Origin: Raillietiella orientalis
Taxonomy: Eukaryota
Assembly (NCBI GenBank): GCA_036172245.1
Contig: JAYWIR010000074.1
Coordinates: forward strand, 186,001 to 250,000
Length of the DNA stretch: 64,000 bases
Reading direction: 5' to 3'
Shown here: positions 1 to 64,000 of the stretch, in pieces
How positions within the stretch are numbered: the first letter of the stretch is position 1
Layout of the letters: each line of letters begins with the position of its first letter
Translations under genes and position numbers: made by a program
Notes under the pieces: generated by a model
The model's database searches: none
The model's input: only the letters and a program-made list of their open reading frames with translations
Told to the model about the DNA's origin: nothing

Positions 1-415
1 CCTCGCCGGGATGTTTCAGAGGAATGGTAATGTTCCCTGTTACAATCCCATGGTGAGGACGACCATCGCCCTCTTCATCACCGCCATACTTGTGCGGTGG
101 TGGAAAATGAGGAAAGCCAGAAGAGCCGCACCACCGATGGAGATCCTACAAGGGCTCCTGAAGAGAGAAATCGAGATTAGAAACTGTGGGAAAATCCAAG
201 CCTGGACGTACCGATTCATCCTGAAGAGGATAAAAGACGACGCCCGGGACCAAACAGCAGGAAACCCACCATGGGTGCAGAACTTGTGAGAACCCAAGGA
301 CTTCGTAGTGGTAAAAAAAGTGCTAATGGTATGGATGAGATTGTAGTGTGAATGTTTTTATAGATAAATTTCAGAAAAATAAATTTACCCCACCCCTCGT
401 GGGACTCGGGGAAAA
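1..415 (+). mobile_element. 3' fragment of lineage C LINE (end of ORF2, 3'UTR, AATAAA-hairpin terminus)
   Basis: Closely similar to 38985-39401; ORF 11-289 matches the C-terminus of lineage C ORF2; ends AATAAATTTACCCCACCCCTCGTGGGACTCGGGGAAAA. Confidence 0.9.
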
Positions 416-1639
416 CTGCCGAGTCGGCGATGGGGCGACTGCATGCAGCGTGCTTTTGCTCGTCGCGACGCTGCTTTTTACGGCTTTCGTAGCCTTTGCA
501 GTGGAGCCTGCGCTACAGTGGGGCTGTCCGGAACTCGGAAGGGACAACGGAAAGGGGCAAGAAGTCTTCGCACTGTTGCGATCTTCCTGTTTTCCTACCT
601 TTCTCTCCAGGGTGTTACGGAGATTTCCTGGTTCCTGGCTCGGAGAGGTGCCTGCGAGTTTGGCAGAGAGGGAAGGCACTGCACGCGTCAAACGCTCGCA
701 CCCCTTTTTAATTTTCTTCCACGCCGTGACTTTCCCCTTTCGGGACGTTGCGGGCGGGGATGCTTTCCTTTCATCCACGGATCGCTCGTCGTTTTTTGCG
801 AGTTTTTGCGGACGACGTTTTTTATTTGCCGCTGCGGCTTTTCTTGCAGTGGTCTCTTGAACCCGACGAATTTCCGCTGCGGCTCTTTTTCTTGCAAGTC
901 CCGGGCACTTTTTGATTTCGTGCCCGGAATCTTTGCAATAGCGGCATCTTGGAGAGGGGCACTCTTTAATTCGCTGCCCCTCCTTGCCGCACTGCTCGCA
1001 CGCGCGAGTCTGGCCTATGAACCACAGGTGAACGACCGTGCCGTTCACCTGCAGCTTCTCAGGCACAACACGCCTGTTCGCGACGGTGATCCGTGCGGAG
1101 GCTTTTCCAATGTGGACATAGGGGAAATCCTTTAGAGGATTTGGCCTCCCCCACAGAGTGTGCACGGTGGCGAACTTCGCCTGCACACTTACGACATCGC
1201 GGTCGGAGATTTCAGGTTCGATGTCGCACAATTGAACGACAAAAGAGTCGTGCATCGCGGTAGGTAGGACTTCCTTGCCATTGATGGTTAACGGCGTACG
1301 GAGAAGGCGCTGCACAAGTGCTGCGTTCTTGCACCGAATCTTGGTATATTCCATCCTGCCAGCAGGCATTATGGCAAGAAGTTCCTTCTCGCGAACGCCT
1401 ATCCGTACGAGCTCATCATTGAGCTCACGACCTATTCTCCCGTTAAGTGGCACACTGACCTTATAACGGAGTGCAGGCATGTATGCTGATGACACATATG
1501 CCTGGAACTCCGCATCGCAGGGTCCTGGTCTTTTGGAGGTAACGGCGGCGTAACTCCTCACCGGGGGCGAGGAAACCATTACGGAGGATGCGGCCACTTC
1601 AAGTGCAGCTGAAGTGCATCCAGTGGCTTGCTCCTCCAC
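416..1639 (-). pseudogene. LINE ORF1 (nucleic-acid-binding protein with two zinc knuckles), truncated at SPTRQ
   Basis: ORF 371-1639 has CEQCGKEGQRIKEC and CRYCKDSGHEIKKC; the residues after SPTRQ are read from the antisense C terminus. Confidence 0.85.
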
Positions 1640-1778
1640 ACTATCCTGTGTACTGGCGATGTTGCACTATGCTACTTGTCAGATTGCACAGTTACACACA
1701 AGTGCGAGCAAAAACGCAGGCACAAAGTTGCCCGATCGTTGGCGCGGACAGACGCGGAAACACGTCTGCACTGTACGA
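416..1778 (-). mobile_element. 5' part of lineage A LINE (5'UTR + ORF1), cut by the C insertion
   Basis: Paralog of 39402-40762; GACGTGTTT motif at 1761-1766; joined to host APE sequence at ~1779. Confidence 0.9.
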
Positions 1779-2091
1779 GCGCAAGAGATCGAACGGATCT
1801 CCGGAGGGCGGCAATAGTACTGGTGTGGGAGAGCGAAAAGTTGCGCTGTCGCCTACCTGCTTCGGCCAGCCGTCGAGGCCGCGGCTCGGGGCGTGCAGTT
1901 CGACGATTACGGTCGTGTCGGCCAGCTGACTCTCAGGTGGTCCGACTCGATCGATCTGATCGTCAGGAACGTGTACGCACCGAGCGGCGCGGAGGATGTG
2001 GAAAGAGGTTTTTCTTGCTCCATCGCGACTGGCTGACCGAAGCAGGCGTGCGGAATGCTTATGTGGTTGCAGGCGATTTCAACGTTCGCCT
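1779..2091 (+). mobile_element. APE fragment of a lineage D host element (QEI...NVYAP...GDFN)
   Basis: Aligns with 45472-45801; resumes at 10426 after the B' insert. Confidence 0.85.
2076..2091 (+). repeat. 16-bp target-site duplication, left copy (ATTTCAACGTTCGCCT)
   Basis: Identical copy at 10426-10441. Confidence 0.9.
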
Positions 2092-2238
2092 TCATACGAG
2101 TCGGACGTGATTTCTTGTCGCTCCGTGGTTTCGCTGTTTGGTTGTGTTTGTGCATCCCACTGCACATCCCCAAGCAGTGAACAACGCAAAGTGTAAGACC
2201 TCGAGTCTGTAGTTCAGGAACTTTCTGCAGCTGGAGTG

Positions 2239-3430
2239 ATGGCGAGAACGTGTGCGAGCCGTGCGCCACCGACCAGGAGCATTGTGGACGTGGCTGCTTC
2301 TGCAGTCGTACAAGGATTCCTCTCCGACTAGGCGGACATGCAAGCCTATGCAGCCCAGGCCTACAAGCCTGCTGCCTGCTTTAACGTAAGTGTAGTAGGT
2401 AAGGCTGGGGAGGATTTCGAGGGTGAACTGTACCGTGTGGGAGTGCGAGAAGAGGACCTCATAGCACTGATGCCTGTTCCAGCATTGGGCTATGTGAAGG
2501 TTTGATACAAGCAGTCTGCACTTGTGCAGAAACTTCTCCGCACTCCTTTGTCCATCCGCGGAAATGAAGTTTTTCCTTCCGCGATGGACGAGTCTTTTGT
2601 CGTTGTTCCCTAGGACGTAGAGCCGGAGATCAACGACAAACAGTTGATGGACGCGTTGGCGAAATTCGCAACCGTTCATGCGGTGTGGAGGAAGGAGAGT
2701 TCCTACAGGAAATTCCCTTCCGCACACACAGGATTTGCTGCGGTTATGGTAACTGTTTCTAACTGCCGCACGCTGCCTACCACGCTACAGGTCATCGGCA
2801 CGGACGTTCACCCGTGGTTCGTTGGCAAAACTCGCGCGTGCGAGCAATCCGGCAAAGAAGGGCATCGGGGTAAAGAATGCCCTTCCCCGAAGTGCCGCTC
2901 CTGTAAGGAGTCCGGGCACGAAATTAGAAAGTGCCCGGACATAAACAAAACAAAGAAGGCTGCTAGAATCCGGGGTGCTAAAGAGTGCGCAGAGGAGAAA
3001 ACAGCATCCTCAAAAAAAAAAAAACTGGGAGGCTCGCGGAAGACCGAAGATAAAAACGGCCCGAGCGAGGTCTCAAAGTTGGCTCCCTTAGAATCAAAGC
3101 CCCAAAAAAGCAATCGCGCGGCAAGGAAGCCATTTAAAAAAGGGAGAGAAGGCTCTGCGCGTACCGTTACTGTCCCAGTAGCTGATCACGGAGACGCTAC
3201 TTGCGAAATGGGATCAGTAAAACCAGTCGCTCCGTGCGACAAGGCGAAAGAAGCACACGCGAAAGAAAATTGCGTGGTAACCGTCTCCTTGAGAGCTCTT
3301 TACATTTTGGAGGCTTCAGTCGGAAACCTCACGCAGGCGTCTGCAGGTCCGTCGAAAAAAGCCGACAAAAGCAGCGCTGATTTGCCTCAAAACACGCAGC
3401 AACCAGCTGCATGCTCCCCAAGAAGACAGA
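2239..3430 (+). pseudogene. B' ORF1, degraded and interrupted
   Basis: ORF 2644-3693 has KFATVHAVW and knuckle CRSCKESGHEIRKC; stops and frameshifts upstream; start approximate. Confidence 0.75.
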
Positions 3431-6400
3431 TTGCCCCAAGTCCCACAAGGGGTGGGGTAAATTTATTCTTCTATAAAAATACACTTCTTACATTCGCACT
3501 CTCATTCACTCAATGCAAACACTTTGCACTTGGGAGTCCTTGGGTTGCACTGGAGTTCTGCTTTTCAGGGAAGGAATCCAGTTGGATGGTCCCGGGCGTC
3601 GTCCTCGATCCACTTCAGCATGAATCGGTATGTCCAGCCTTGGATTTTCCCACAGTTTCTAATGCCGATTTCCCTCTTCAGGAGCCCTTGTAGGATCTCA
3701 GTCGGTGCTGCGGCTCTTCTAGCTTTCCTCATTATCCACCACCGCTCAAGTATGGCGGCGATGAAGAGGGCGATGGTCGTCCTTACCATGGGATTGTAAC
3801 AGACAACATTACCATCCCCATAGAGCATCCCGGCGAGGATCTCCATTACGGACCTGGTGATGAGTCCGATGATCCTTTTCAGGATCAGTCAGTCATGCAG
3901 CAATGTATGACACGTCAAGACGTGAATTCCCGTGTCGTTGTGTCCCCATGCCTTGCAGTCTCGATCATCCCGCCTTTTGGTATAGTATTGCATTCGCGAC
4001 CCACTCTGGATTCCTCCATGATAAAACATCAGGAGGTCACCCTGAGTCCTCGGCGGATGGTCATCCCTCCAGAGCATCGTGCCATTCGCTAGCAGGTTGA
4101 TCCGGTCACTACCGTAGCGATGAGCGGCTTCCTGGAGGGCACTGATGTCACGGTCTTCTTCCCGAATTAATCTTCGGAAATTTATTTCGAATACCCTCGA
4201 CCACGCGAAGTCGTTGCGGTTGAGCCACACGTCGAAAGTCATGTGGGTGAACCTTCCTAACATCATCTCTAGATACCCAAGTATACGAGCGTGATGTAGG
4301 TACCCTCCTCGCCTCCACTCCTAAATTCGTTGTAGGGTAACTCTGGACCGCTGGTGGAACCAGCTCCTCGTGTCAGGCGGGACGGGAAGCATCGAAGGGA
4401 TCACCAGGATGGACTCGACCTGCCAGAGTTCCCAACTTCTCGGCACGATCTTGATTTTGTGCTTTCGCACCAGGCGTTGCTTCCTCGTCCACGTTGGGTC
4501 GATATGTTTCCATTCGCATGCTCGGCCTAGCAGAGCAGTCATCAGGCCTTTCGAGTTCTTCAACAACAACGCGTATTCCCTGTGCGCCGCATAGGGCCAG
4601 TCATCCCAGTGGGTGGCAATGTCCAGGATGTGTCGCGTATCCATGATTTCTATGAAGTGTGCAAGCGACTTCATCCCGAAACCGCCTTCTTCCCAGGGAC
4701 GACAGAGGGGTTTTAGTCGAACTCTTGGGCCATAGTCGCCACAGAGTGTTTTTCTCTGCAGCTTGTCGAACTTCCTCGTGGTGTCCTTCTTCATCCTTTC
4801 GAAGGCCGCCCCGAAAAGCACTTTTGGAAGGAGTACTTTGTTCCATATGTTGGCCTTTCGCTTCATTCCAAGGTCCGTTCGGGTGTACTTAGCTGCTTCC
4901 TTGGCCCTTTTTCCTAGGATCTCGGACCACAATAGCTTCGACGCGGAGACGTCGCCAATGTAGACACTTAGGTACATGGCATTGTCCACAGTTCGCAATC
5001 CCTTTCTCCCTAGAGCGAAGAGATCGAGGATTTCAACGGGCAAGAGCTGGAATTTCTGGGCGTTGATCTTAAGACCGACGCCTTGATCCATCAGGTCTAC
5101 CACTTCCAGAAACGCTCGTTGATTTCTCTCTACCTTGAAAAAGAAGAATAGATCATCAGCGTATGTTAGATGGGTAAGACGCTGGCCATCGATTGTTATA
5201 CCTTGCAGTCGTCCGCTCTTCTCGATAAAGGACGGCAACGCCTTCATGTAGATAAGGAACAGCATCGGACTTTGCTAATCGCCCTGCCGGACTCCCTGTG
5301 CCATCCAGATTGCTGCCGTCTGCTTGCCGTTGATTTTGATTAGGCAGTACTGGTTCTGGGGTACCACCCTTACGAAATTGCTGAAGTGTTTTGGATGGCC
5401 TACCTTCTCCAGAATCTTCAGCAGCATCCCATGGTCGATGGAGTCGAAAGACTTTTCCATGTCAGCGAATACCAGCGCCAGGTTCTCGCCGACGTATCGG
5501 CTGAGTCCGACGGTGGCCTGGGCACACTTGACATTGCCCGACATGTGACGTCGAGGGACTGCACACGTTTGGACCGGAGAGATGAGCTTCGACATGACCC
5601 TGCCTATGCGGATGGACCAGATCTTCGCCAACCACTTGGCTCCGGAGTTCAGGATTGAGATTGGCCTTCATTGAGCGATCTGTGTTGGGTCGCCTCCTTT
5701 AGGCAACATTTCCATCATACTCTAGTAGGAGGAATTAGGTAGTCTTCCTTCTTCACGGATGCAGAGGGTCAACGGGTGGAGCAAGCGCAGGTAGGCATGC
5801 AGGTACCGCTTGTAGTGCGTGATAGGAACAGTGTCAGGGCCCGCCGCTACATCCTTGCGCAGTTGTCGAAAAGCAGTCTTCACCTTATCTTTGGAGAATT
5901 CCTCCTCCAGTTTGTTCCGCTGGAGGTCGTCCGTCTTTTTCTCGAGATAGCTCAGAAAGCCTTGTTGACTAGAGCGACAAAGATGTTGTCGCCTGAAGTG
6001 TTTGGTGTAATCCCTGTGAAAGGCATCCACGATATCTTCGGTCGACAGTCGCTATTGACCGTCATACTGAATGCAGAAGATATCCGTTGCCAGGTTTCTC
6101 TTCTTTCGCACGCCTACCTCCTCTTTTATGTTGTTTAAGACGTTCCGACTCTTGTACTGATCGAAGTCCTTTGAGAGTGAGCGATCTTGGATGTTCAGCT
6201 CCCGGTACGCCTCCTGCCTCAAGCGCCTATCCTCGAATTGCATATTTGCAAACAGGTGTATCCTGTGTTTTAAGCTGTGCCAGTCGGCAACTCTTCTGAT
6301 TTTTGTGGTCTTTAGAATCGTCTCCAGGACATCCTGATATCCAGGATGAGTCTCGAACCAGGCGGGCATGCTAATGAGCGCCGCCCTAGTGCCTTGCCTC

Positions 6401-6700
6401 CGCCGAGCATTCTCCGTTCTTAAGGAAAACCGTTCTAACGGGTGATCGGACAGAGTGATCACTGTGTCTCGAAAACCCTGAATGCGCCGCAACATCCTTG
6501 AGCAGTTTTGCAAAAGCAGTCTTCACCTCGTTTTCGGAGAATTCCTCCTCCAGTCTATTCCGCTGGAGGTCGTCGGTCCTCTTCTCGAGATAGCTCAGAA
6601 AGGTTTGTGGACTAGAGCGACAGAGATGTTGTCGCCTGAAGTGTTTCGTGTAATGCCTGTGAAAGGCATCCACGATATCTTTAACGACTGTCGCTCTTGA
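3431..6700 (-). mobile_element. Lineage C LINE, 5'-truncated (end of APE, RT, 3' end), with an internal duplication
   Basis: GVRQGD, YADD, DMEKSFD in ORFs 4321-5265 and 5275-5631; C-type terminus at 3431-3467; ~6487-6700 repeats ~5845-6060. Confidence 0.88.
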
Positions 6701-9700
6701 TCGCGCAGGAGGAAAGCTACTTTGGCGGTGTGGCGACGCGCGTACGTGCGGCGTCGCGTTACTCTTAAGAGGAAAAATTGCGGAAGCGGTGAGTAGTGTT
6801 CGCTCCGATGACGACGGAGGGGTAAGCCAGCTTGGTATCAAGTGGTCTGAGTCCATCGATGTCTTGGTGACGAACATCAGCTCGCATAGTGGCTCGCGCT
6901 ACCTCGAAGATAGAATTGCGCTATTCGAGGATGTGAAATGCCACTGGCTCAACAACTCCGGCTCCCAAGTAACGCACCTCGTCGCAGGCGACTTCAACGT
7001 CTACCTGCTATCCGACGAATGGAGCTGCCCGAGGTAGCGAACGTCGGCCATCGAGATGTGCGCGTCAGTACGCGCTATCAATTTGATGGTCCGCGTACCT
7101 GAGATGGATAGGTCACCGGATCACACCTTCCTCGATGACAACCTGCACGCTCGTGTGGAAAGAAGAGGAAGATTGTCGTCCGCACTTTGTGATCATAACA
7201 GGTTGAAGTTCGAGCTCCTTCCGCCAGGCAAGGGGCCTCCGCTGAAAAACTGGAGGATGTCGGCAAACTGGCTTAACCATCCGGAGGCGACGGATCATCT
7301 CCGTCAGTACCTCCGGACCTTCGTCATCCGCGAATTCGCGGACTGGGATCATTTGAAAAGATCAGACCGCAAGTTCTGCGAACCGTTTCTCTTGCACCGG
7401 CTCCCGCAAGGATTTTGAGAAGGGGTCGCCAACAGCAGTACTTTCCTGCAGGCGCGCACCTTTTCCAGAAGCGCTGAACTCAGCCAGCTAGCGGAATACA
7501 AGTCGAGAGCCGAGCGACAGATCTGGCAGTCTGGAACATCTTGCTTGCTCGGCGAAAAAGGCCTGGAGTGCTCGACACCAGCCGGTATTCGCCGCATCGT
7601 AAGGCGTCAATACTCCTCCCTATTCGTGGTAGCGCATACGGAAAATATTTTTTCGGAGATACTTATGTTCCAGGATGCTCTCGTTGTTAGGGAAGAGGAA
7701 CGCGCATGTCTCGACGAGTCCTACACAGCAGAGGAAATTTCCTCCGCTATTGCGGGACTCCAGAGACGAAAAGCACCAGGTGAGGACGGGCTACCCGCGG
7801 AGTTCTATCAGAGCTTCTCGACGGAACTCGTCCCTCCGGTGTTTAGTCTCTCCCGTTGATGAGGGTCTCGGGGGATGTCCCCAATTCCTTCCGCTCAGCG
7901 AGGGTGCGTCTCCTGCCGAAAGGTGGAGACGAACGCCATCTCAACAACTGGCGTCCGATCATCCGGGTGAACTCGGACGTCAAGTTGTTCTCCAAGATGT
8001 GAGTTGCGCACCTAGGGAGAATCGCGCAGTCCTTGGTAAGCCCAGAGGAGACTTACGCTGTTCCCGGGCGGTGCAAGGAAGCAAACCTCCTGTTTCCCGT
8101 ACCTGGATGCAGCTGCAGGAGCGCGTTGCGCAGCCACGCCGATACGTGTCCAAGGCCGCTGCAAAAGGCACACGGTATCGACAGAAGCGTAAGGAGGGTA
8201 CGCCTGGTGCCTTGACGGTCGCAGTCGACCTGCACAAGGCGCTCGATTGCGTGAACCAAAAGCTCTTATTAGAGCTCCTGGAACGCCTAGGTCTCCCGGC
8301 GTATCTCCTGAAGTACTTACGCGCTTGCTGCCGCCACGCGCTAACCTGCATTTCTTTTAGCGGCTGCCACGTGTACGGTATTGCTGTGCGTAGGGGCATC
8401 ACACAGGGTGACAGCTTAACCTCGTTGCTCTTCAGCATCTTCTCCGAGCTGGTGCTGAGGGCGTACAGGCTGTCGCTGGAGTACCTGCCAAGCTCCTGTT
8501 CGCGTACGCCTGCCGTGGCTGCCTATGCAGACGACCTACTTCTTCTGCACCCCATCTCCACACCGGCAGCCAGTGTCGAAGATTTATTCGAACTGATTCG
8601 TCGGGGAGCGGGCGTGAGTGGAAACCGGAAGAAGAGCGTCGTCGTACCTGTAGGAGCGTCGTGGGAGGGGCAGTCCAACTAAATCCGCCTGGGGATCCTA
8701 ACGGCAGGTTATTTCCAGTACCTTGTAGTTCCGCTGCGCAACCTGGGTTCTGCCGAGGCGTGGTGGGACTGCCTTCAAAGGGCAGAGTTGGCAGTCAGCC
8801 CGTTCCCTAACGGCAAGTTCACCTTGCCGGAACAGGCAGCTATTTGGAACACCTTCGTGGCTCTTCTCGTTCGACCCCTGTTTTTCTTCTTGGACCCCTC
8901 CCTACACGGCTAAAGAGCTGTCAAAACGCCTGCAAAGGAACGCACTCTGGGGTCCGGCGCGATCCAGGATCGTCCTGAAAGACCTCGCGGCTCCACGTCG
9001 GGATGCTGGGCTTGGCATCCTTACGATGGAGAGAATCGGACTGCAAGTGCAGTTCCGGATGCTCGCACTGTGTGCTCAGCTATGGACATTCCCCCTGTGT
9101 GCGCCTGCGCGCATACTCCTAAGAAGGTGTGCAGGCTGTGAAGGACTTCATTCCTTGGTGTCTGGCATGCGTTACAGGAAACAGGGATTTGGCTTTCCTC
9201 TGAGGCAAATCGCCTCCCTATTGGAAGCCAATGCGTGGATTTCCTGCTGCCCGATGAACTACAATGCTTGGCGGTATGAGTCCATTGATTGTTGGGCTGT
9301 ATCGTTAGGAATAAGCCGTGAAGATCTTTGCCCCCAACGTCGATTTCAGCCTCAATCCCTTGCTGGACGAGGTGAAGTTTTCCTCCCTGGCCTCCACGCC
9401 GCTCGCCGAAGCACTGTCTGCACTCAAGGATCGAGATGAGAGTAGCCAGCCGGCGAAGTGGGTGTTCTCTCGCACCATTGCAGGTAGAACAAAACCAGTT
9501 GGCAAATAAGCCAAGAGCGAGCTTGCAGTTGCCGCCACTCCTCGTGCAGCACCAAAGGTATTACTTCGGTGAGAAGAAGAACTAGGTGTAGCTTTCGAGG
9601 AAATTACAATACCTATTTGGTGTTTGGACGGTTCGGTGTTTTTCTTTGCATGAAAGCAATACGTTTTGCTCTTCTTGCACTGAGGCTTGCGCTACAACGA

Positions 9701-10112
9701 GCGGTGCCACCGAGTTTACGGTGGTGTGGCTTCTTACTACTGTGCCCGGTGCGGGGCGACGGAGTCGTTCCCGCACCTTGTTATGCATTGCAGTGCCCTC
9801 CAGCAACTCTGGCGGTGGCAAGCAGCATCTTTTCGGCTTCCGGGGGACATTGATCGAGAAGTGCTACGACGCTTCTTCCAGCCACAAGGACTTTCAATGG
9901 CTGCGACGATTTCCACTGTTGGGTTCATCCGCGCCATCGTCACGGTCCGAGACGTGCTGGAGAACACTGGACAGCAATGTTGTGTCACCAGGAAGGCAGC
10001 TGACTTCATCAGTTCGGCAGCTTAGTGGCGAAACTTATATGAAGACACAACGGAGGAGCTAACCTTTATCCATCGCCGGATCACCAACGGCTTCGAACGA
10101 CGAAATCTGTGA
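6700..10112 (+). pseudogene. B' ORF2 (APE-RT-zinc finger), many lesions, N-terminus missing
   Basis: AGDFN, PGEDGLPAEFY, DLHKALD, GITQGD, AYADD, CARC...PHLVMHC; closely parallels B1 ORF2. Confidence 0.88.
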
Positions 10113-10425
10113 TCCGCCCTCATTTTATTTTTGATTGTTTTTTTTGTTCTGGCGTCCTTTTTCCCATACGCTCCGCAGTTCTTTTGGAGCTAGAACTTTT
10201 GATTTTACCGTTGACTGCGGAGCAATCTCAAAGTTCCCTAGCCGACTCCTCCCATTTACAATTTTTTTTTTTTTTTGGACTCCCTTCAGTCGTCCATGTT
10301 CTTCCGTTTTCCTGGCCTGCATGACAGGGGTGAATCTCCGCTGCATGTTTTCCAAATGCATTGCTGGGAACAATTGTTTAAGGCACGTTTATGTCAATAA
10401 ACGTATCGACGTGACCGGGTGAAAA

Positions 10426-10441
10426 ATTTCAACGTTCGCCT
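10426..10441 (+). repeat. 16-bp target-site duplication, right copy
   Basis: Identical to 2076-2091; the host APE frame (FNVRLKPD) continues after it. Confidence 0.9.
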
Positions 10442-49584: not shown

Positions 49585-49592
49585 ATTGAAAT

Positions 49593-49622
49593 TTATCACC
49601 CGGTCACGCCGGGGCGTTTATT
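49593..49622 (-). terminator. LINE 3' terminus: AATAAA + CCCGG-CGTGA-CCGGG hairpin + short A tail (best-preserved example)
   Basis: Minus strand AATAAACGCCCCGGCGTGACCGGGTGATAA; homologs at other element ends; function inferred. Confidence 0.7.
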
Positions 49623-53498: not shown

Positions 53499-53503
53499 TA
53501 CTG

Positions 53504-55444
53504 CTAAGAAGGTGGCGGCTTTTTGCTCGCTTTATCCGGCGAGCAGACGGCGAGCAGCACGACTGGCTGGAGGGGACGGTCGCCACCGTCCTCTGTCGTG
53601 CTGCATGCATGTAATGCTTCCACGCCAGGCTGAACCCCGTCGGGTTTCGTGGAGACTTCGCGTGGCTTCGCGGCGAGCGTTGCCTGGCTGCCTACTTTTG
53701 ATCGGCGCGCACACGCTTTCGAACGAGTTGTCCTCTTCTCGGTGATCGGAACGGCATCCATTTCGGAGTCCGACCGGCGCATGTTCGATCGGATTTCGGC
53801 CTTCCGCGAAGCAGTGACAGGTTCTGCTGGATTGACAGCTGTCCTGTTTTCGTTTTCCGTCACCAGGGCATCGCTTTTGGTGACGGCTGCTTTCCCGGCG
53901 CGCGCGTTTTCCGCGTGCTCACGCGCAGTTGCACGAGGGACCTTTGCTGAAGTCTTCTTTACTTCATTACGGTTCCTCACTTCGCGTGGCGCCGTAAATG
54001 GAGATTGTGCTCCATGGCCATCTTTGAAGCCATCCGCGTCTTTGGACGGGAGCCCTTTCGATGGCTCCGACACGCTCGTCATGGACGCTGCTTTCGGAAG
54101 GGCTTTTAATCCCTTCGTTGGCATGGCATCCGCGCCAGTCGAGAGCTTGCTCTCCGACTGCGACGGCGTGAGATTTTTGTCCGCTTTCGCGGTGTTGGAT
54201 CGCGACGCGGATTTTTTTTTTGCCGACTTTCGAAGTCGACACGGCACAACCCTTCTTACCCGATTTGGGCTTCTCAGCACTGCAGGAGGTGAAGGAATCG
54301 ATCTGACGGTACTGGAAATGTCCTTACCGCCGTTGTCCATTGACGTCCCCGCCGGTTGCTCGAACTCCGAAAGAGCCGGGCGTGCTTGGGAAGGACAGCT
54401 ATTGCGCCTAGGGGGACTTACCATTGCCCCGGATTCCCCGCACCCTTTCTTTTGCGGCTCCCCTGCCGCGAGAGGGGGTGCGCAGGGCTTCGCGTGCGAT
54501 GTTTCCTGCTGCTTTGGGGCGACATTCCGCCTCGCGTTTTTACCGAATTTCTGCCGTGGGGTCTCCAGGTTTTTCGCAGATTTTTTCTTTTTATCCGCGC
54601 TTTGTTTTTTAAAATTGAGCTCCGCGGCTGCCTTTTTTCGCAAAAGATCCGGGCAATTTTTCAATTGGTGCCCGGATAGTTTGCAATAACGGCATTTTCC
54701 AGAGGGGCATTTATCCAAACAATGCCCCTCGTTCCCGCATTGCTCGCACGTTTTTACTTTGCCCACGAACCACAGGTGAACGACCGTGTCATTCACCTGT
54801 AGTTTGGTAGGCAGCAGACGGCGGTCCGGCATTGTAAGCCGGACTCCAGCGACTCCGCTGTGTATGGACGGGAAGTCCTTGAGGTTGCTACGCACCCTCC
54901 ACAGCGCATGGACCGTGGCGAATTTCGCCAACGCGTTCCGAATATCAGTATCGGAGATTTCCGACTCGATGTCGAAAATCTCCACCACAAATGAGTCGTC
55001 CATGGCGGCCGGGAAGACCTTCTGGCCACGGATCGACAACGGGGTGCGCAGCAAACGTTGCACAAGTGCAGCGTCTTTGCAACGCACCTTGAAATAGCCC
55101 ATGTCTTTTACGGGCATAATGGCGAGAAGGTCCTCCTCCCGCACGCCAACACGGGTCAGTTCATCGTTGAACTGATTCCCGTCGCGCGCAGAACGAAAAC
55201 CACTCACCTTATATCGGAGAGCAGGTCTATAGCCTTGGGCTACGTATGCCCGCAACTCCGACTCGTCGAGTGGTTTCCCTTTGACGGCTGCTGTGGCAGC
55301 AACGTCAGCAAAACTCCTCTCCATTGGCGAGAAAGACGAAGTGGAGGCGGCCGTCGGTTCCGCGATTGCAGATCCGGATGCTGTTCCTCCAACTTCAGTA
55401 GCTTCAAGTTGGGTCGACATCGTCGTCAAAATGTACGACGCCAA
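53504..55444 (-). CDS. B1 ORF1, 646 aa, nucleic-acid-binding protein with two CCHC knuckles and a long low-complexity tail
   Basis: Open frame; CEQCGNEGHCLDKC and CRYCKLSGHQLKNC. Confidence 0.9.
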   Translation of the reverse strand: MASYILTTMSTQLEATEVGGTASGSAIAEPTAASTSSFSPMERSFADVAATAAVKGKPLDESELRAYVAQGYRPALRYKVSGFRSARDGNQFNDELTRVGVREEDLLAIMPVKDMGYFKVRCKDAALVQRLLRTPLSIRGQKVFPAAMDDSFVVEIFDIESEISDTDIRNALAKFATVHALWRVRSNLKDFPSIHSGVAGVRLTMPDRRLLPTKLQVNDTVVHLWFVGKVKTCEQCGNEGHCLDKCPSGKCRYCKLSGHQLKNCPDLLRKKAAAELNFKKQSADKKKKSAKNLETPRQKFGKNARRNVAPKQQETSHAKPCAPPLAAGEPQKKGCGESGAMVSPPRRNSCPSQARPALSEFEQPAGTSMDNGGKDISSTVRSIPSPPAVLRSPNRVRRVVPCRLRKSAKKKSASRSNTAKADKNLTPSQSESKLSTGADAMPTKGLKALPKAASMTSVSEPSKGLPSKDADGFKDGHGAQSPFTAPREVRNRNEVKKTSAKVPRATAREHAENARAGKAAVTKSDALVTENENRTAVNPAEPVTASRKAEIRSNMRRSDSEMDAVPITEKRTTRSKACARRSKVGSQATLAAKPREVSTKPDGVQPGVEALHACSTTEDGGDRPLQPVVLLAVCSPDKASKKPPPS

Positions 55445-55480
55445 GATGAAGCGGATGAAAGCACGGAGACGAGAGCGAAG

Positions 55481-55491
55481 AAAAACACGTC
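55481..55491 (-). promoter_or_regulatory. Conserved 5'-end motif GACGTGTTTTT (candidate internal promoter element)
   Basis: Recurs close to the 5' end of ten elements in the window; function inferred. Confidence 0.55.
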
Positions 55492-57810
55492 CGCACTCGA
55501 TTGAAATCTCCCGCTATCAGGTGAGCCTTTCGTACATTGGTATCCGCCAGCCAGTCACGCTTCAGGGTTTCTAGCAGCCAGGTGAGGTAGCAATACCCTT
55601 GTTTGCCGCTGGGGCAATGCACGTTTTTGACGATTAGGTCAATCGATTCGGACCAGCTCAGAATCAGCTGACCGATCCGAGCGTCCTCATCAAACCGCAC
55701 GCCCTTTACGGCAGCGTCGATGGCTGGCTTGACAAAGAACGCGACCCCGCAGGTGTTGCGGACGCCGCACCGCCAATACAACCGACCCCCCGCGATCGTG
55801 TCGATCTACTGGGCGTCTGCCGCGGTGATCACATGGATCTCCTGCAGCAGGGCCAGGTCGAGCTCACGCAGGGTGTCGGCCGTATCTTGTCTGTTGCCGT
55901 CGTCGCGCAGCCCATTGACGTTCCAACAGGCCGCGCGAATTCGACGGCGCCTGGCGAGCCCAGCTGTTAGCCCTTGGAAAACGGCGATGCGGCGTCCGCC
56001 ACCTGCTGGGGCGGGACGCTAGCAGGAAAGAGAAAGGTGACAGGTACTGAAGGCACCTGTTCCTCCTCCTCCATCGGTGGCGGCGCGTCGGCCGGATCAC
56101 CGGGAGGTGTAGTCACGCCTATCTGTTCGCCCTCCTCCATGGGTTCGGGCTGCTCAGGTATCGCGACTGCAGGGAGGACTTCGCCCCCTGCTCATGTCCT
56201 CCATGGGGGTGGCCGACTTGACGGCTTCCGGGTGTGGGTGTTCCCCCTCTGGGATTTCCATGCTGCCGCTTCCTTCCAGCTTTTCCTCCTCGCTGGTAGA
56301 GGGGAGGCGCCTCCTGGGTTTCTGGGACTTGCGTCCCTACTTCCTGGGGGGTGCCTCCGAGGAGAAGGATGAGCTTTTGGCCCCCAGGTCGCACTCACCT
56401 GCGGGGGCCTTCTTCGTCGGAGCTGACCTGCGTACGCCCTTGCGCGACGGGGTTTCGCACTCGGCGAGCGTTGCTGCGAGCTCCTCCTCCGCTTTCTCGA
56501 AGCCCGCGTCTTCGCCAGCGGCGACGGTTGCCGCGGGCTGCTCCGCGACCTTATCGAGGGCGGCGTCATCGCTGTTTTGCGGACATTGCCGCGGGCGGCC
56601 TCGGCAGGAACGGCTAAACTTTCCAGTGCCACCGAGCATTCGCGGAGTTGTTTCTTTGAAAGCGGTGCAGCTTTTTTCTTTTTGCCGACAGTTTTCTTCT
56701 CCGACTTTTCTCCTGCCATCACTTTCTTTGTTTTTCCTTTTCTGGCCTGAACCAGCTGTTAACCCTTCTCCATCCCCGCGTCCACGGGAGCTCTTTCCTC
56801 CGACGCCTGCACGGGAGGAAAGGAGGCTGTCAGTTGGGAACGGCCATTTTCGCGAACTACTCTTTCTATTAGCTTTCCACGTTTTCCCTGCGCCTTTTTG
56901 GCGGCAGGGGGCACCGGGATAGGGCGCTTTGGGCACACGCGCCGAACGTGACCCTTTTCCTCGCATAGGAGGCACACAATGTTCGGGCACCTTTTTCGTA
57001 GATGCCCTACTGCATTTCAGTAGCCACAAAATTTGCGTTTCACCTCTTACCAGAGGTCCACCGCTTCTTGGCAGACCTCCAGCTTGTGGGGAAGCGCACC
57101 ACCCTTTTTTACGGTGATACGCGCCGCAGCTCGACCTCCGAAAATGCTATTGTAGCCTTGGAAAATCGTGGACTACGGCCACAACGCGTGCACTTCTGCG
57201 TGCTTTTCTAACTGCTCGCGAACCGCTGACCTAGTCATGCGATTGGAGATCCCAGTGAGATGGACCACCACCGAGCGGTCCATCGTCACCGGCAAGATCT
57301 TTCAACCATCAACGATCAGCGGGTCGGTGATCAGGCGTCGGGCAAAGGTGATATCTTTGCATACCACCTCGACCCGCTGCCCGTCGCTGAAGACAGAGAG
57401 GCAGTTAGGATTTTTTTCGAAGATATTGGCGTTCTGCAGCGCCTTCTTAAAGGCGTGTGCAGTTCGCGCATCAAAAAGGTTGCCTAACTTTTAGACTAGC
57501 GAGGGTTTATACCCCGCTTTCTTGTAGGCTTCCATCTCAACCATGGCTTTCACGCTAGGCGCGGCCACCATGGCGCTCCATGACCTCGGCGTCGCCGGGG
57601 ACGATTCCGGGGCGGATGCTTCTGATTCAGTAGGCTGTGGGGACGAACTAGCCTACCCCACGCCTACTTATATCGCGGTGTCCTCTGGCAACGCTGCCAT
57701 CGGACACCGACGATGTGCACGCACAAACCACTCAGCAAAAAACCACTCGCCTTGCCACGCAGGCGGAGCGCAAAAAAAGCACGTCTTCTCTCCACAGAGG
57801 GGATTTGGAG

Positions 57811-58392
57811 TTGCCACCCGGGTACGCCCGGCGCGTTTATTTATAAAAACTCTACAATCGCGGTACCAGGCCCCGCTCACGGCCTTATGCACGGGACCTA
57901 CCGGGACGCCGGGACGCAGCCCGGCGTGGCACTCCCCTACAGCGAAAGGGGATGGGGTAAAACAAAAATAAACACAAAAACGCAAACAAACAAAAGAGGT
58001 TGGAGGGAAGGGAAGGGATCACTGTTCGCTGAGAGGAGGGCCCATCCGTTGAAGGAAGCATTCGAGGTCCATCCGAATATTCCCCAGTTGGGGCCATCCA
58101 GCAGCTCTCTGCAAGAAGCGTTGGGCTTCCATCTCGGCAATGGCTTCTACGCTAGGCGCGCCCACCATGGCGCTTCATGACCTCGGCGTCGCTGCGACGA
58201 TTCCGAGGCGGATGCCCCTGATCCAGTAGGCTGTGGGGACGAACAAGCCTCCATACGCCTACTTTCATCGCGGTGTCCTCTGGCAACGCTGCCATCGGAC
58301 ACCCACGATGTGCACGCACCAACCACTGAGCAAAAAACTACTTGCCTTGCCACGCAGGCGGAGCGCAGAAAAAGCACGTCCTCTCTCCACAA
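57811..58392 (-). mobile_element. ~580-bp internally deleted lineage F derivative with both termini
   Basis: 58127-58392 matches the F 5' end (57527-57797); 57811-58126 matches the F 3' end (41493-41811); flanked by 13-bp target copies. Confidence 0.88.
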
Positions 58393-61318
58393 AGGTGATT
58401 TGGAAAAGGGTCTTGCTACAAAAAGGCGTATTTGCACGCCCGTCGTTTCGCAAGGACCCCTGACGTCCGTCGCTTGGCGAAATACAAAGCCGAAGCCGAG
58501 CGTCAAGCATGGCAAACAGGACCGCCCAGCGTGCTGGACTATTTGGACCAGGAACACTTGAAGCCGGCTTCGATACGTCGCCTCTTGACGGATTTTACTC
58601 CTCTCTTTACGCAAGGGCACCTGCGGAGTAGGACGCTTCGCGGCGCCTGCTCCCAGATGGAGCCACGGCCATAGGGGAGGAGGAAATAAAAAGCATCGAC
58701 GAGCCTTTTACGTCCGGTGAAATCATCACCGCGATTAAAAGGCTTGAAGGGCGTAAGGCGCCTGGGGAGGACGGCCTGCCGGCGGAGTTCTTTCAGATCT
58801 TCGTCGCAGAGCTGACCCCCCTGGTGCTCAAATAGACATCGCTGATCCGACACCAAGGCGATATTCTTTCCTCGTTTCGGTCAGCCAGGGTGAGGCCCCT
58901 TCCTAAGGGAGGAGACCTCAGGAAATTAAGCAACTGGCGTCCGATCACGATAGTGAACACGGACGCCAAGTTGCTGGCCGGACTGTGGGCTGCGCGACTG
59001 GAACAGGTAGCTGACAGCTTCGTCAGCCCGGAACAGACGTACGCTGCTCCCGAGCGAAGCATGGAAGCGAACCTGTTCTTCTCCAGCACTTGATTCAACC
59101 TTGAACAGGAAGAAAAAGAGAAGAAAAAAGAACAAAATGACTACAAACCTAATTTGGGAACGCCAGCACGGCAAACAAGGGACTGCCGGGAAGGGAAGGG
59201 TGCTTTAGCGAGCGCAGTCGATCTCCACAAAGCTTTCGACTGCGTGGAACAGGAACTCCTTTTGGAGCTCCTAGATCGCATAAGCTTCCCGAACCCTTTA
59301 GTGGCTTACCTGCCCGCCTGCTGGCGCAACGGAATCATTAAGGTATCTTTTAGAGGACAGCATGTGTTCGGCGTACCGGTGAGGCCCGGCATCCGGCGGG
59401 GCGACAGCCTGAGTACCCTACTCTTCAGCACCTATTTCGAAGTGGTGCGGAGACCATACAGGGTGACATTGGCTGCCCTGCCAAGCTCGTGTTTAGGTAC
59501 ACCGGCCGTACGCTCACGATCTTTTGCTCCTGCTGCCAATGTGTGCCCCGGCTTCGGCAGTCGAAGATTTCTTCGAATTGTTGAGCCGTGGGACAGGACT
59601 ACAGGTGAACAGGACGAAGTCATCGCTGGTTACTGTTGGTGCTACGTGGGCAGAACGACCTGATTCGATCCGCTTGGGGATCCACACGGACAGGTACTTC
59701 AAGTACCTCGGCGTTCCGTTGGGAGACTTCTGTCAGTCAGAAGCCTGGTCAGTTTGTCTCCAAAAAGTGGAGTAAGCGATTGGCCCGTTCCTGGAAGGCA
59801 AGCTATACTTTCCGGAACGGGCCGCGGTGTGGAACGCGATCGCAGCCTCCCTCCTTCGCCCTCTGCTTTTTGTTTGCCCCGTACCCGGTGAACTGAAAAA
59901 AAGAACAAAGGACCAACTACGCATTGCCCTGTGGGCGGCAGGGGGCCTCGTGTGCCTTTAAACGATTTGTGCGCTCCACGTCGGGACGGAGGTCTTAGCG
60001 TCCTCACGATGGAGCGAATGGAAACACAGCTGCGGTGGCGCACTCTAGCCATCGTAGCGAAAATGTGGAACACCCCTTGATGCGTTTCAGCGCGCCTTCT
60101 TGCTAGATGTGTGTCCAAGACTGAAGGACTTGCGTCTTTTCTTCTGTGATACGGCCGGAAAATAAGAAGATGCGGACTTCTCCTGGGACGCATGGTTACC
60201 CTGGCAAAGGAGAACGGGTGGATGGCCTGCAGCCCCGCCAACTCCAGCGCATGGCTGGAAGAAACATTTGGAACGTGGGCAAAGATGAAACACATCAGTG
60301 GAGAATGCTGCAACGGCCTGCGCTCCGGCATCTAAACCCGCTGCACGCTGCGGAACATGATCGAGTGTCCAGCCAGAAGCACTTGGGCGGAGATGACTCC
60401 ACTGGCAACGGCTCTGCCCTTCCTACGAAGGGCGCTTCATAACAGCCGCAAGCCGAGATGGCAAGTCTCCTGCCGGATAGCGGGCAAAGAGAAGGATCTG
60501 ACTGGGTGGACCATAAGGGAGCTGGCTAACGCCGCGACCCTAAGAGTTCACCCGCATGGACTACGAAGATGGGGCGAGCTGCTTGGCATCACGACGGATG
60601 ACCTAGAGTGGCCCCCGTCGTTAATTGATTCATCCATCGTTTCCCTGAAGTGGCAGAATTCGGCGCTGTTGTTGTTGCACTGGGGTCTTCCCTGCAACGC
60701 GCGCCGCCACCACTGGACGTGGGGGAATGTTAAACAGAACTGTGCAGTGTGCGGGGAGAAGGAATCCCTCCCCCATCTGTTAGTAAACTGCACTGCCCTC
60801 CGGCCCTTTTTGGAACATTTTGCTACGAACCTTTCAATGCCGAAAGGCAGCACCCCCAGAGACGTTATGAGACTCCTCTTCGTGCGACACGCCCTGACAC
60901 CAGCCTCAGCCCTGGCAGCACTTTGTGGCCACCCAGGGATTGTGGCCGCGTGGAGCGCAGCCAGCAGAGGAAGCAGCGACAGGGATCCCATCGTACACGC
61001 TGGTCGATACCTGCGAATCGCGATCGGCTGGTCCCATCTGGGAACAATGCAGAGGGACATCGAGGGCATCCTCGAAAGGATGGTCTCTTCCTCCAGCGGG
61101 CTGTGATCCCTTCTGGTCCCTCCAAATAATTTCTTTTCGTTTATTTCTTTTATTTTTCTTTTTGTTTTTACCCCGTACCCCCTCCGCTGCCGAGGGAAGT
61201 CATGCCGGCATGCGAGTTGGCTTCCCATCAGGTCCAAAGAACTATTTACCGTAGCGGGGCCTCTTACCGCGAAAACATAGTGTTTAGCAATAAACTTCCC
61301 GGCGTGACCGGGTGAAAA
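58393..61318 (+). mobile_element. Lineage E host, part 3 (linker, RT, zinc finger, 3' end)
   Basis: Resumes at the GFG linker; WRPITIVNTDAK, DLHKAFD, KYLG, CAVC...H...C; terminus 61289-61318. Confidence 0.85.
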
Positions 61319-63773
61319 CTTCCCCGCGTCCTCTTCGTCAACAACGATGAGTTAGAGTTCCGTAGTTGCTGCACCATCCCGGCTGCAGTAGCGCAGCAGA
61401 CTGCCTTCAAGGACAGCGGCTACAAACCGCCGCTGATCTACAAGGTAGGCAGTGTGTTCGATGAGAAAATTGCACGCTCCTTTGAAATGGAACTGCAAAG
61501 ACTGTATGTGAGGGAGGAAGACCTCGAGGGCTTCTCCGTCCTTAGTATGGGGCAGCGAGTTGAGCTGACTTGCAGAGAGGCAAGTCTAGCGCAGCGCCTG
61601 CTAAACACCCCCATTACGGTGGACGGCCGCAGGGTCTTCCCTGTGACGGAGGACCGCTGCGTCGTGGTCCACCTCACGGGCGTATCACTCCGAATGGTCA
61701 ACACCAGCGTCCATGAGGAGTTGTCAAAACACAGTAGAGTGCAAACTTTGGGCCAAACTCAATGTCTCCCGTACGTACGGAAGACTATTCAGTGGGATGG
61801 CCGCTGCCCGCGTCACACTACCTGAAAATGGTGGGTTTCCCCACAAACTAAATATCGGCGAAGAAAAAGACGATGTTTGGTACGTGGGAAAGCCCAAATA
61901 TTGTAGCCATTGCCATGCTACAGGCACTTAAAAAAACGGTGCCCTAACATCCAATGCTACTTATGTGGAAACAAGGGCCACATCCGCAAGGTGTGCCCAA
62001 GAGGAGAAATCCCGGTTTCTCCCGCTGCGAAAAAGGCAAAGGGGAAACAAGCGGGAGAGACGGATACCATTAAACAGGCCGTAAGGAGCCAGATGCCAGT
62101 CCCTAAGCCATCCCAGCCAACGTCATTTAAAAGCACTCCCGACGACGCTGACGACAGCAAAGTCTGGCAGACGGTACAGCCCAGAAGAAAGCCCAGGAGT
62201 CCCGAACGAAGCGCGGAAAAAACAAAAACGCAGCGCGAAAATCCGTGCCGCGAGAAAGTTCGCGATTGGTCGGTAAAATTAGAGCGTGCGGAGGCACTCC
62301 ATGCCTCCATCAGGGGAGCAATCTGCCCACTTGCGTCCGCCGAAGCCGCGACGGTCGATGACGAATCTTCTGGGGAAACAGAGGGGGAACCGCGCGCCGC
62401 GCTCGACGCGATCGAAGGGCCGCCTTCCAGCAGGCGGTGGAAGAACTCGAGGCAGAACTGCAAGGCCGTGAGAAGAACTTCCGAAAAGGCTGACGAAGGC
62501 AGGCCGCGAGGAAGGTTCCGGTTGCAGGTGACGCCCAACCGGATGCCAGAATTGCGTCCTCATTAACATAGGCGCCACCAAACAAGACAAGACGCGAGTC
62601 CCAGAATCCCAGAAGGCGGATAGGGATCAAGAAGGAGGAGCATCAACTGGCACCCGAGGGGGAAGCCGGCAACGTAAGAGCCGAGAGTGGGAATCTCATT
62701 TCTCGACACCGTGCAGCTGGCGACCCCTATGAAGGAGGAAGTACAGGTGGGTGAAACTCCCCTTCCTCTGCACGGCCCAGACGAAGACTCGGTTCACATG
62801 GAGAGGGGAGAAGCGGTGCGCGACGCACCCCCTTCCCCTAGCGTCCCGCCCGACAAGGTTGCGGGAGCCCTATTGCCACTTTCCCAGGATTAACACCTGG
62901 ACTCGCCTGTCGCCGTAGGATCCGCATAGCCTGCTGGAACGTCAACGAACTGCGCGGCGACGGCAACAGGCGCGATACGGCCGACACCCTGCGCGACTCC
63001 GACCTGGCGCTTCTGTACGAGATTAACTAGATCACCGCGGAGAACGCCCTGGAGAAGGAGAGGATCGCAGAGGGTCGTCTGTTTTGGCAATGCGGCGCCC
63101 GTAACACCTTTGGCGTCGCCCTTTTTATGAAGCCAGCAGTCCCCGCCTTCGTCAAGGACGTACACTTCGACAAAGACAGCCGGGTTGGCCAGCTCATCCT
63201 TAGGTGGTCCGACTCCATCGACCTTGTCTTGACCAATGTGTACGCTCCGAGCGGCGGATGCGGGTACGGGTAACGTTCCAGGCTCCTCGAAACCCTGAAG
63301 CGCGACTGGCTTGCGGATACATACGTACGCAAAGTGCATCTGATCGGTGGGGATTTCAACATCCGCCTGCTCTCAGGCGTGCGTTGCGGGCTAAAAGACG
63401 CAGTCAACGAGCTGTGCGCTACTATGAGCACGCGCAACTTGTTGAGGGACATACCGGAAATGGTCCAAAGCGTAGACCACGTCTTCCTTGACGCCGACCT
63501 GTGCCCACGGGTCGGCAGACGAGGGAAACTTCTGCCGAGGCTATCGGACCACTTCCGTTTGATAATCGAGAGTATTCCACGCGACAAACGACCACCATCC
63601 AGGACGTGGCGTATGCCAGGGGACTGGGAGCGCATCTCCGGTGCGGTGGAATATCTCCGCCAGTTCCTGAGAGGCGTCATCCTCCGCAACCTCGAAGACT
63701 GGGACCGCATGAAGGTCTCGGTCCGCGATCTGCGAGGAGGTCCCTCTGCACCGCCTGCCCCGTGGATTTGGTG
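61319..63773 (+). mobile_element. Second lineage E copy (E2): 5'-truncated ORF1 + APE
   Basis: Collinear with 27750-29490 + 40766-41492; GGDFN, VDHVF, LSDH. Confidence 0.88.
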
Positions 63774-64000
63774 TTGCCACCCGGGTGCGCCCGGGGCGTT
63801 TATTGAAACTCTACAAAAACGTGGTACGAGGCCCCACTTAAGGCACCACAACACCGTACCTGCCGGGACGCCGAGATGCAGTCCGGCGTGACGCTCCTCG
63901 GCAGTGGAGGGGACTTTGGGAGGAAACAAAAAGAAATAAACTAAATATAAACAAAAGAAGTTTGGAGGGAGGAGTAGGGATCACTGTCCACTAGGATGAG
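63774..64000 (-). mobile_element. 3' end of another lineage F element, running out of the window
   Basis: Minus strand AATAAACGCCCCGGGCGCACCCGGGTGGCAA; 3'UTR similar to 57811-58030. Confidence 0.85.

Follow-up and report, generated by a model that had tools for sequence, protein, structure and literature searches.

Related LINEs land at fixed positions in one another's coding sequences within a 64-kb nested island of Raillietiella orientalis

Site-specific long interspersed nuclear elements (LINEs) are known to hide in ribosomal DNA (rDNA), small nuclear RNA and transfer RNA genes, telomeres, microsatellites and, in one classic case, a DNA transposon; the TRAS and SART elements of insects, for example, are site-specific LINEs in telomeric repeats. 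In the available parts of the published reports, Tx1L of Xenopus laevis, a member of the Tx1 clade of the L1 group, is described as having one target sequence inside the DNA transposon Tx1D (PMC1950540), R1Bm as a sequence-specific LINE of the apurinic/apyrimidinic endonuclease (APE) type (PMC1950540, PMC1919474), and transposons are listed among LINE targets (PMC4640811). The same holds for Zepp of Chlorella and Coccomyxa and ZeppL of Chlamydomonas, L1 LINEs that form nested, LINE-dominated clusters at putative centromeres (PMC8226300, PMC3446292, PMC9940879, 10.1101/2025.03.28.645958, 10.1101/2024.02.27.582245), the Zepp arrays consisting mostly of 5′-truncated 3′-ends with poly(A) (PMC8226300), and for nested long terminal repeat (LTR) retrotransposons of plants, which prefer certain regions of other elements (PMC6911290). 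Here we describe a 64-kb stretch (the window) of contig JAYWIR010000074.1 of Raillietiella orientalis, occupied by LINEs that probably represent a radiation targeting each other's coding sequences.

Within this window at least four LINE lineages insert at one exact nucleotide in the coding sequence of other lineages. An earlier note on this DNA had claimed that each of several LINE lineages has a fixed landing position in the coding sequence of others; inside the window the claim holds, and the five sites it named (GDFN and QEI in the APE, the PRGFG linker, SPTRQ in open reading frame 1 (ORF1) and HKAFD in the reverse transcriptase (RT)) are all real at the nucleotide level. We take GDFN and KAFD to be catalytic motifs of the APE and the RT. 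The support the note had invoked is likewise present, as target-site duplications (TSDs) of 15 and 12 bp, same-site tandems of lineages A, B and F, and reuse of the sites of A to D in different hosts. Orientation is constant within each lineage: B is inserted in sense, while A, C, D and F are inserted in antisense.

Lineage B enters at GA^TTTCAA (the caret marks the junction) in the GDFN codons; its hosts read GGCGA^TTTCAACG (copy D1) and GGAGA^TTTCAA (F1), and the 3′-ends of B1 and B2 are both ..GTGA(A/T)AAA^TTTCAA. B1 (2092-10426) lies between two identical 15-mers (2077-2091 and 10427-10441), a perfect TSD, and the same 15-mer runs uninterrupted through D2 at 45787-45801, an empty B site. 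B2 and B3 form a same-site tandem separated by TTTCAA. The Asp codon at this target is GAT (GAT TTC) in all copies of subgroup II of the RT tree except M, and GAC (GAC TT(C/T)) in all copies of subgroup I, B included; the difference falls on the first TSD base.

Lineage A enters at ..GAGA^ in the QEIER codons of the APE, where the 3′-ends of A4 (in host W1) and A2 share one codon position. W1 reads GAGAACGACCAGAAGA up to the A4 3′-end, and this sequence aligns without gaps to GAGAACGCCCTGGAGA of W2 and ..GCGCAAGAGA of D2. The 11-mer AGCGCAAGAGA lies next to the A1 5′-end in D1, forms the spacer between A2 and A3, and is intact in D2 as an empty A site. It has exactly 3 matches in the window against 0.06 expected, and none of 100 shuffles gave 3.

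The target of lineage C follows SPxRQ of ORF1 and is occupied by four 3′-ends in three host backgrounds. These ends come after ..APSPTRQ (A1, A4), ..SPSRTRK (A3) and ..ACSPRRQ (B1), that is, after the homologous ORF1 codon, and C4 is flanked by a perfect 12-bp TSD (34076-34087 and 39402-39413). Lineage D uses the RT motif KAFD in two host lineages: the D1 3′-end joins G within AFD, and the D2 5′-end lies in F1 immediately ahead of GCGCACAAGGCGATCGA, 17 nt upstream of the D1-type junction. Lineage F enters after GFG of the PRGFG linker, with three 3′-junctions (..TTTGCA, ..TTTGGA, ..TTTGGT); a 13-nt triple repeat around F1 and F2 represents three copies of its target (CAGGGAATTTGCA, GAGGGGATTTGGA, AAGGTGATTTGGA).

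To estimate the role of chance, a conservative set of events was used (B 2, A 2, C 3, D 2), with a spread of at most 17 nt, the same orientation, and random landing on a 5.9-kb element. None of 2,000,000 random trials matched, and the analytic joint probability is 1.5e-13.

Recurrent junctions could nevertheless have arisen once each and then spread by segmental or tandem duplication, unequal crossing-over or gene conversion. Rearrangements and internal duplications are present in the window, the W1 and W2 flanks that host F are 83-84% alike, F1 and F3 are 82% alike, and A1 with C1 resembles A4 with C4 at 93-94% across the junction. We regard such single-origin copying as very improbable as a general explanation. 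The sites of A, B, C and D are reused in different host lineages, with host flanks 66-72% and inserts 75-95% alike (flanks 66% and inserts 95% for A; hosts 71-72% and inserts 77-85% for C). For B, the hosts are of the D and F lineages (72% alike), and B1 and B2 differ by a synonymous divergence (dS) of 0.91 with a nonsynonymous to synonymous ratio (dN/dS) of 0.27; the D hosts are G of subgroup I and F1 of subgroup II. Codon comparisons between lineages gave dN/dS of 0.21-0.34 at dS of 0.9-2.4, which is not expected of dead duplicated copies and means that the lineages diverged as working elements rather than as decaying duplicates. B1 has its own perfect TSD, and its site is empty in D2. Taken together, the different host lineages, the divergence of hosts and inserts, the dN/dS values, the TSDs, the empty site and the tandems argue that the A, B, C and D junctions are not all copies of one event; the insertions are independent and share both nucleotide and orientation. 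The objection that the earlier note had raised against itself, that its junctions might trace to duplication of single events, is thus ruled out for these four lineages by host divergence, dN/dS and TSDs, but F was not shown to be independent. F3 is as diverged as its host and may therefore be part of a duplicated W+F; the identities suggest that the recurrence of F may be such a duplication, and the F1/F2 tandem is the only argument for site reuse by F. Part of the recurrence might also come from composites, in which an A element already carrying C was copied in trans by other A elements with the A/C junction travelling along. C does lie at the same place in all three A copies with a visible ORF1, and A1+C1 and A4+C4 are 93-94% alike, flanks included, though they sit in the different hosts D1 and W1; judging by this likeness, the two pairs may be copies of a single composite. 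C is also found, however, in B1, of another lineage, at the homologous codon. The ORF1s of A3 and A4 show dN/dS of 0.45 at dS of 0.65, and C3 and C4 resemble each other more (78-86%) than their hosts do (71-74%), so C entered after the A3/A4 split. Composites account for at most one of the four C junctions and for none of A, B or D, and we consider their contribution possible, if somewhat unlikely.

Another explanation is aiming by chromosome region rather than by sequence: the elements would go to, for example, the centromeric or silent chromatin proposed for Zepp and ZeppL, and nesting would follow because the region holds only LINEs. The window is indeed LINE-only, and in the portions of the reports at hand the nested clusters of Zepp and ZeppL, one per chromosome, form by insertion into existing copies (PMC8226300, PMC3446292). 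Such aiming does not yield the same nucleotide and orientation in different hosts, for which the chance value is given above, and on its own it appears scarcely more probable than single-origin copying; regional and sequence aiming could act together. The least credible explanation is an assembly artefact of a repeat-rich region. Single-base indels separate the window from contigs of sequencing runs, for example an extra G at 52235, but perfect TSDs, exact junctions and consistent nesting are not expected from mis-joins, and in an independent run contigs match B2 at 99% identity, though none bridges a junction by 31 nt. That this run is only ~99% like the window indicates that other strains exist. 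We therefore consider a radiation of sequence-specific LINEs using each other's ORFs as targets to be the probable explanation.

Several observations weigh against it, besides the identities given above for F and for the A/C pairs. All junction evidence comes from this one window. No A TSD is recognisable in W1, and the C target letters are only loosely alike across the three hosts (GACTCGGCAG, GACTCGAAA, GAAGACAG). W, K and G have single, mutually different junctions: the W1 5′-end lies 8 codons past PRGFG in M, while the K 3′-end at APE residue 281 and the G 5′-end in the APE-RT linker are each seen once. The W1 tail is followed at once by W2 (61310-61330), which starts ~85 nt into the W 5′ region (compare 27660-27745), with no target spacer visible. 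Among the loose ends listed for 200 short contigs with 80% likeness to 49593-57800 (e.g. 51290, 6 contigs), from the one sequencing run that contains the stretch, none falls at the five sites; these contigs give no genome-wide test in either direction, and two further runs are nearly without matching sequence.

The earlier note had also stated that every clean terminus lies in another LINE. The window is LINE throughout, but seven breakpoints (6486, 6700, 10553/4, 16944, 22900, ~25230 and ~48100) are rearrangements and not element ends, a further point against the proposed reading. At 6699, exactly on the A site, B1 starts again but abuts internal C sequence, an arrangement that no simple insertion model fits and that also counts against the reading. 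A 215-nt internal C piece is repeated at the 5′ side of C2 (6485-6703) and equals 5842-6061 and 22049-22265 (88-89% alike). In D1, an internal 1.1-kb deletion joins APE residue ~209 (..AGCATTGAC) to RT residue ~75 (ACCGAC.. in D2). The D1 boundary at 10554 (RT residue 79) was tried as an insertion junction and rejected in favour of this internal deletion between the short similar words ATTGAC and ACCGAC; in protein maps the deletion at 10553/10554 mimics a break at the KAFD site. At 16944, H RT residue 218 joins A2 RT residue ~395; at 22900, the truncated 5′-end of C3 joins APE residue ~250; at ~25230, K RT residue ~20 joins M ORF1 residue ~70-86; and at ~48100, D2 RT residue 434 joins B3 ORF1 residue 533. 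These four breakpoints are best read as deletions in an old nest. The meeting of B3 and D2 at ~48100 would reflect one deletion, running from inside B3 through the rest of the F1 APE and the start of its RT into the 3′ part of D2.

The window is LINE-derived throughout. GC content is 50-60% along its whole length. RVT_1 matched 10 of 39 long stop-to-stop ORFs and Exo_endo_phos 2 of 39, with weak zf-CCHC and weak zf-RVT matches in 2 of 39 each (Pfam). The three ORF products of B2 match fragments on both strands from one end of the window to the other (tblastn), and 56,166 of the 64,000 bases are covered by self-similarity or tblastn matches; the uncovered stretches of at least 100 nt (n = 13) each lie within an inferred element, in C-terminal parts of ORF1 or untranslated regions. 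No non-LINE DNA was seen across the 64-kb window. The elements are non-LTR retrotransposons of the APE type, with an ORF2 made of an N-terminal APE followed by RT, an upstream ORF1, TSDs, an A tail and no LTRs. The closest solved relatives of the APE, linker and RT are in human L1 ORF2p, which places the elements in the L1 group. In the main clade, ORF1 carries a CCHC knuckle and ORF2 consists of APE, RT and a zinc-binding tail. B2 (49592-55500, minus strand) is nearly whole: its ORF1 spans 669 codons, the APE frame 446 and the RT frame 706 (PF03372 at 3.6e-13, PF00078 at 1.3e-14); it is 96-97% like B3. Its ORF1 is open; its ORF2 is interrupted twice, by a frameshift near 52235 and by an in-frame stop at 52027-52029. 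An independent-run contig carries the extra G at the frameshift position, and the frameshift may be an assembly error or a strain difference in the window.

About ten lineages form the main clade, to which C is added as a sister lineage. The RT tree, proposed as a check in the earlier note and rooted here with unnamed outgroup sequences and no reference LINE elements, recovered a single main clade (support 100) with two subgroups and C as its sister (95). Subgroup I holds H, A and B; subgroup II holds D, F, K, W and the metagenome protein P0001. An exhaustive comparison of the B2 RT with 1.84 billion representative proteins gave 2 matches at E ≤ 1e-30: P0001, with 56% identity to the B2 RT and from a 2.9-kb metagenome contig, and P0128, a 132-residue fragment. 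A protein search with the B2 RT gave 7 matches among 8000 candidates, and one with the C RT gave 155 ordinary L1-type matches at 29-40% identity. The protein-cluster atlas returned generic RT clusters only, and none of the protein searches named a known LINE family. Seven metagenome loci related to P0001 were all distant (22-61% identity over short parts) and were not used; a metagenome scan for the 3′ box gave 0 stretches. The main clade is isolated and very rare in public data, and the window is best explained as an island of this one isolated L1-group clade together with its sister C.

The 3′-end of A, B, D and W is AATAAAC-N8-GTGACCGGGTGA followed by 3-5 A; these lineages are only 65-75% alike overall, yet their 3′ terminal box is near-identical. 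F ends in ..GTACCCGGGTGGCAAC, and C in a different GC hairpin-like box plus AAAA; both have GC-rich boxes of their own downstream of AATAAA. A scan for the boxes found 5 ends of the A/B/W type (plus one chance match with 5 mismatches), 3 of the F type and 4 of the C type, and the decayed 3′-ends of D1 and K were identified by eye. The conservation of the terminal box suggests that it is likely an RT recognition site and polyadenylation signal. Folding of the aligned 3′-ends gave a 5-pair stem only, with a covariation term of 0.07 and no real covariation. The 5′-ends of the main-clade lineages are alike: ~8-12 nt precede (G)GACGTG, after which come a T-rich run and CGCTCC-like letters. The motif may be an initiator or internal promoter. 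Canonical 5′-ends were found in 11 copies (A1, A3, A4, B1, B2, B3, D2, F1, F2, G and C4).

These features are consistent with the following mechanism. The endonuclease of each lineage would nick one defined sequence lying in the coding region of other lineages, its APE domain presumably carrying the specificity, and insertion would proceed by target-primed reverse transcription from the short A tail after the conserved 3′ box. A second nick 11-17 bp away would give the TSD, which would rebuild the target, and head-to-tail tandems would arise because the rebuilt site can be hit again. Each insertion would break the ORF of the host copy and supply new targets, so that nests enlarge and the island remains purely LINE. 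In an alignment of the APE domains no obvious specificity loop was found, and the residues preceding the SDH motif are conserved throughout the lineages.

Codon usage at the targets bears on whether a lineage avoids itself. The change from GAT to GAC at the B site may be an escape from self-targeting by a synonymous change. The clade of A itself reads GAAA^T, whereas the hosts that were hit read GAGA^ or AAGA^. The target of D (GCATTCGAT) is also present in D itself, which is therefore not directed at rivals only. Self-avoidance thus appears possible for B and A, is absent for D and is unproven for all. The earlier note had spoken of a safe harbour that inactivates a rival: insertion does break the host ORF, but the strategy implied goes beyond this observation. 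More tentatively, the LINEs might form a closed, self-sustaining community of hyperparasites, the only niche of each lineage being a catalytic or constrained codon block of its relatives (GDFN, KAFD). Such targets would not be freely mutable, escape would come by synonymous change (GAT to GAC), new specificities would appear by radiation, and LINE-only islands would be a by-product, possibly serving the host as centromere-like or silent domains. By extension, the arrangement might be of some benefit to the elements or to their host.

The elements and their nesting are listed in Table 1. The reconstruction is anchored by the two perfect TSDs, 15 bp around B1 and 12 bp around C4, and reaches a depth of up to five. 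In the left nest, H holds G, G holds D1, and D1 holds A1 (with C1) and B1 (with C2). The middle part contains the A2/A3 tandem, C3 inside A3, K inside an APE remnant, and then M. In the right nest, M holds W1, which holds A4 (with C4) at QEIER and F1+F2 at PRGFG; F1 in turn holds B2+B3 at GDFN and D2 at KAFD, and W2 follows W1 and holds F3. Position 38475 was at one point taken as a junction between two elements, with a separate lineage; this was dropped, as the C4 TSD shows one A4 split by C4.

Table 1. Elements, element ends and target codons in the window (caret, junction)
Feature	Position	Strand	Remarks
C1, 3′ part of C lineage	1..415	+	3′-end ..GGGGAAAA within A1 ORF1, after SPTRQ
A1, 5′ part of A lineage (ORF1)	416..1777	-	5′-end adjoins QEIER site in D1 APE; flank 1778-1788 = AGCGCAAGAGA
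D1 piece 1, APE from QEIER site to GDFN	1778..2091	+	ends in left 15-bp TSD copy, 2077-2091
B1 piece 1, 5′-end and ORF1 up to SPRRQ	2092..3429	+	
C2, 5′-truncated C (3430-6486) in B1 ORF1, then displaced internal C piece (6485-6700)	3430..6700	-	
B1 piece 2, APE residue 68 to 3′-end (..GTGACCGGGTGAAAAA)	6699..10426	+	~850 nt of B1 missing between pieces
D1 pieces 2 and 3	10427..12295	+	right TSD 10427-10441, APE to residue 209, 1.1-kb deletion at 10553/10554, RT to 3′-end ..CCGGGTGAAAA
D1 3′-end			joined to G at GCATTCGA^T (AFD)
G, 5′-complete (ORF1, APE, RT to residue 82)	12296..16150	-	cut at KAFD by D1; 5′-end adjoins H in APE-RT linker (ATLM)
H, RT N-terminal fragment, B-like lineage	16151..16944	+	
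A2, 3′ part of A	16945..18267	+	then 11-nt spacer 18268-18278 = reverse complement of AGCGCAAGAGA
A3, 5′ part of A, tandem behind A2	18279..19638	+	ORF1 cut after SRTRK by C3
C3, 5′-truncated C	19639..22900	-	
APE fragment (residues ~250-281), A/B-like, probably A3	22900..22994	+	host of K 3′-end
K, RT to 3′-end (decayed tail ..GTGAGAAG)	22995..25230	-	single antisense junction, APE residue 281
M, ORF1 and APE to 8 codons beyond PRGFG	25231..27659	+	host of W1 5′-end
W1 piece 1, 5′-end, ORF1, APE to QEIER site	27660..29489	+	
A4 piece 1, 3′-end, RT, APE, ORF1 C-terminal part	29490..34087	-	left 12-bp TSD of C4 at 34076-34087
C4, full-length C (5.3 kb)	34088..39401	+	perfect 12-bp TSD
A4 piece 2, ORF1 N-terminal part and 5′-end	39402..40768	-	
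W1 piece 2, APE from QEIER site to PRGFG	40769..41491	+	
F1 piece 1, 3′-end (..GAGTGGCAAC) and RT back to HKAID	41492..43601	-	
D2, 5′-end, ORF1, APE with empty B and A sites, RT to residue ~434	43602..48100	+	5′-end adjoins KAFD site of F1
B3, 5′ part of B (ORF1), tandem behind B2	48112..49585	-	
B2, near-intact 5.9-kb B	49592..55500	-	TTTCAA on both sides (55501-55506, 49586-49591)
F1 piece 2, 5′-end, ORF1, APE to GDF	55507..57796	-	
13-nt target spacer (57797-57809) and F2 (57810-58391)	57797..58391	-	F2 an internally deleted F copy, tandem with F1
W1 piece 3, 13-nt TSD copy, APE from GFG on, RT, 3′-end (..GTGACCGGGTGAAAA)	58392..61318	+	
W2, directly behind W1	61319..63772	+	without ~85 nt of 5′-end; cut after PRGFG
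F3, 3′-end of F copy in W2	63773..64000	-	same site as F1
3′ boxes, A/B/D/W type	10396-10426, 18237-18267, 29490-29520, 49592-49622, 61289-61318; also 12265-12295		
5′-ends with GGACGTG-type motif	55500, 49585, 2092, 1777, 40762, 18279, 43602, 57796, 58391, 16150		
GDFN codons, GAC group	53037-53042 (B2); 6987 region (B1); 13548 region (G); 32959 region (A4)		
GDFN codons, GAT group	45784-45792 (D2); 2074-2082 (D1); 63349 region (W2); 55501-55509 (F1)		

Should the pattern hold across the genome, it would represent a new type of ecological relation among mobile elements. As read from the target sites, the lineages may provide a natural series of related APE endonucleases with at least five different specificities of 10-20 bp, and with it material for learning how such enzymes read DNA and can be retargeted. 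The same process would be a simple, sequence-based mechanism for the building and purity of LINE-only nested islands of the Zepp/ZeppL type, which in green algae are linked to centromeres. It would also be a tractable case of transposon conflict, with the target in a catalytic motif and a possible escape by synonymous change.

The earlier note knew of no described multi-family case, and our search of the open-access literature, supplements excluded, found no multi-lineage network of LINEs inserting into LINEs. The closest likeness is to Tx1L, which, as far as the available text goes, is also an APE-type LINE with a highly specific endonuclease and its only target inside another mobile element. 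Tx1L, however, is one lineage with one non-LINE target, whereas the window holds at least four to five sibling lineages, each with its own site in the coding sequence of related LINEs, and targeting runs both ways between subgroups. With Zepp and ZeppL, in the consulted portions of the reports, the window has in common that LINEs enter copies already present and form nested islands. Those portions describe one Zepp family per genome (two in some species), in arrays of mostly 5′-truncated 3′-ends, and mention neither a fixed site nor a multi-lineage network. In the window, by contrast, the 5′-end is retained in most insertions, many lineages occur side by side and the sites are exact; the 11 canonical 5′-ends and tails of 3-5 A differ from the truncated, poly(A)-bearing copies of Zepp arrays, and no Zepp-named protein was among the matches of the B2 RT protein searches. 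R1 and R2 of 28S rDNA and the TRAS and SART elements resemble the window, within what the sources at hand cover, in that one multicopy target serves several site-specific lineages, which differ in nick site and orientation, have short A tails or none and form precise 3′ junctions; their targets, however, are host genes or repeats and not the elements' own relatives. Plant LTR elements, from the accessible part of the source, likewise land preferentially in parts of other elements, yet theirs is an integrase-based regional preference of a different element class and is not nucleotide-exact. The window is best read as sequence-specific, mutual LINE-in-LINE targeting, a variant of the site specificity of Tx1L and R1 and of the self-nesting of Zepp.

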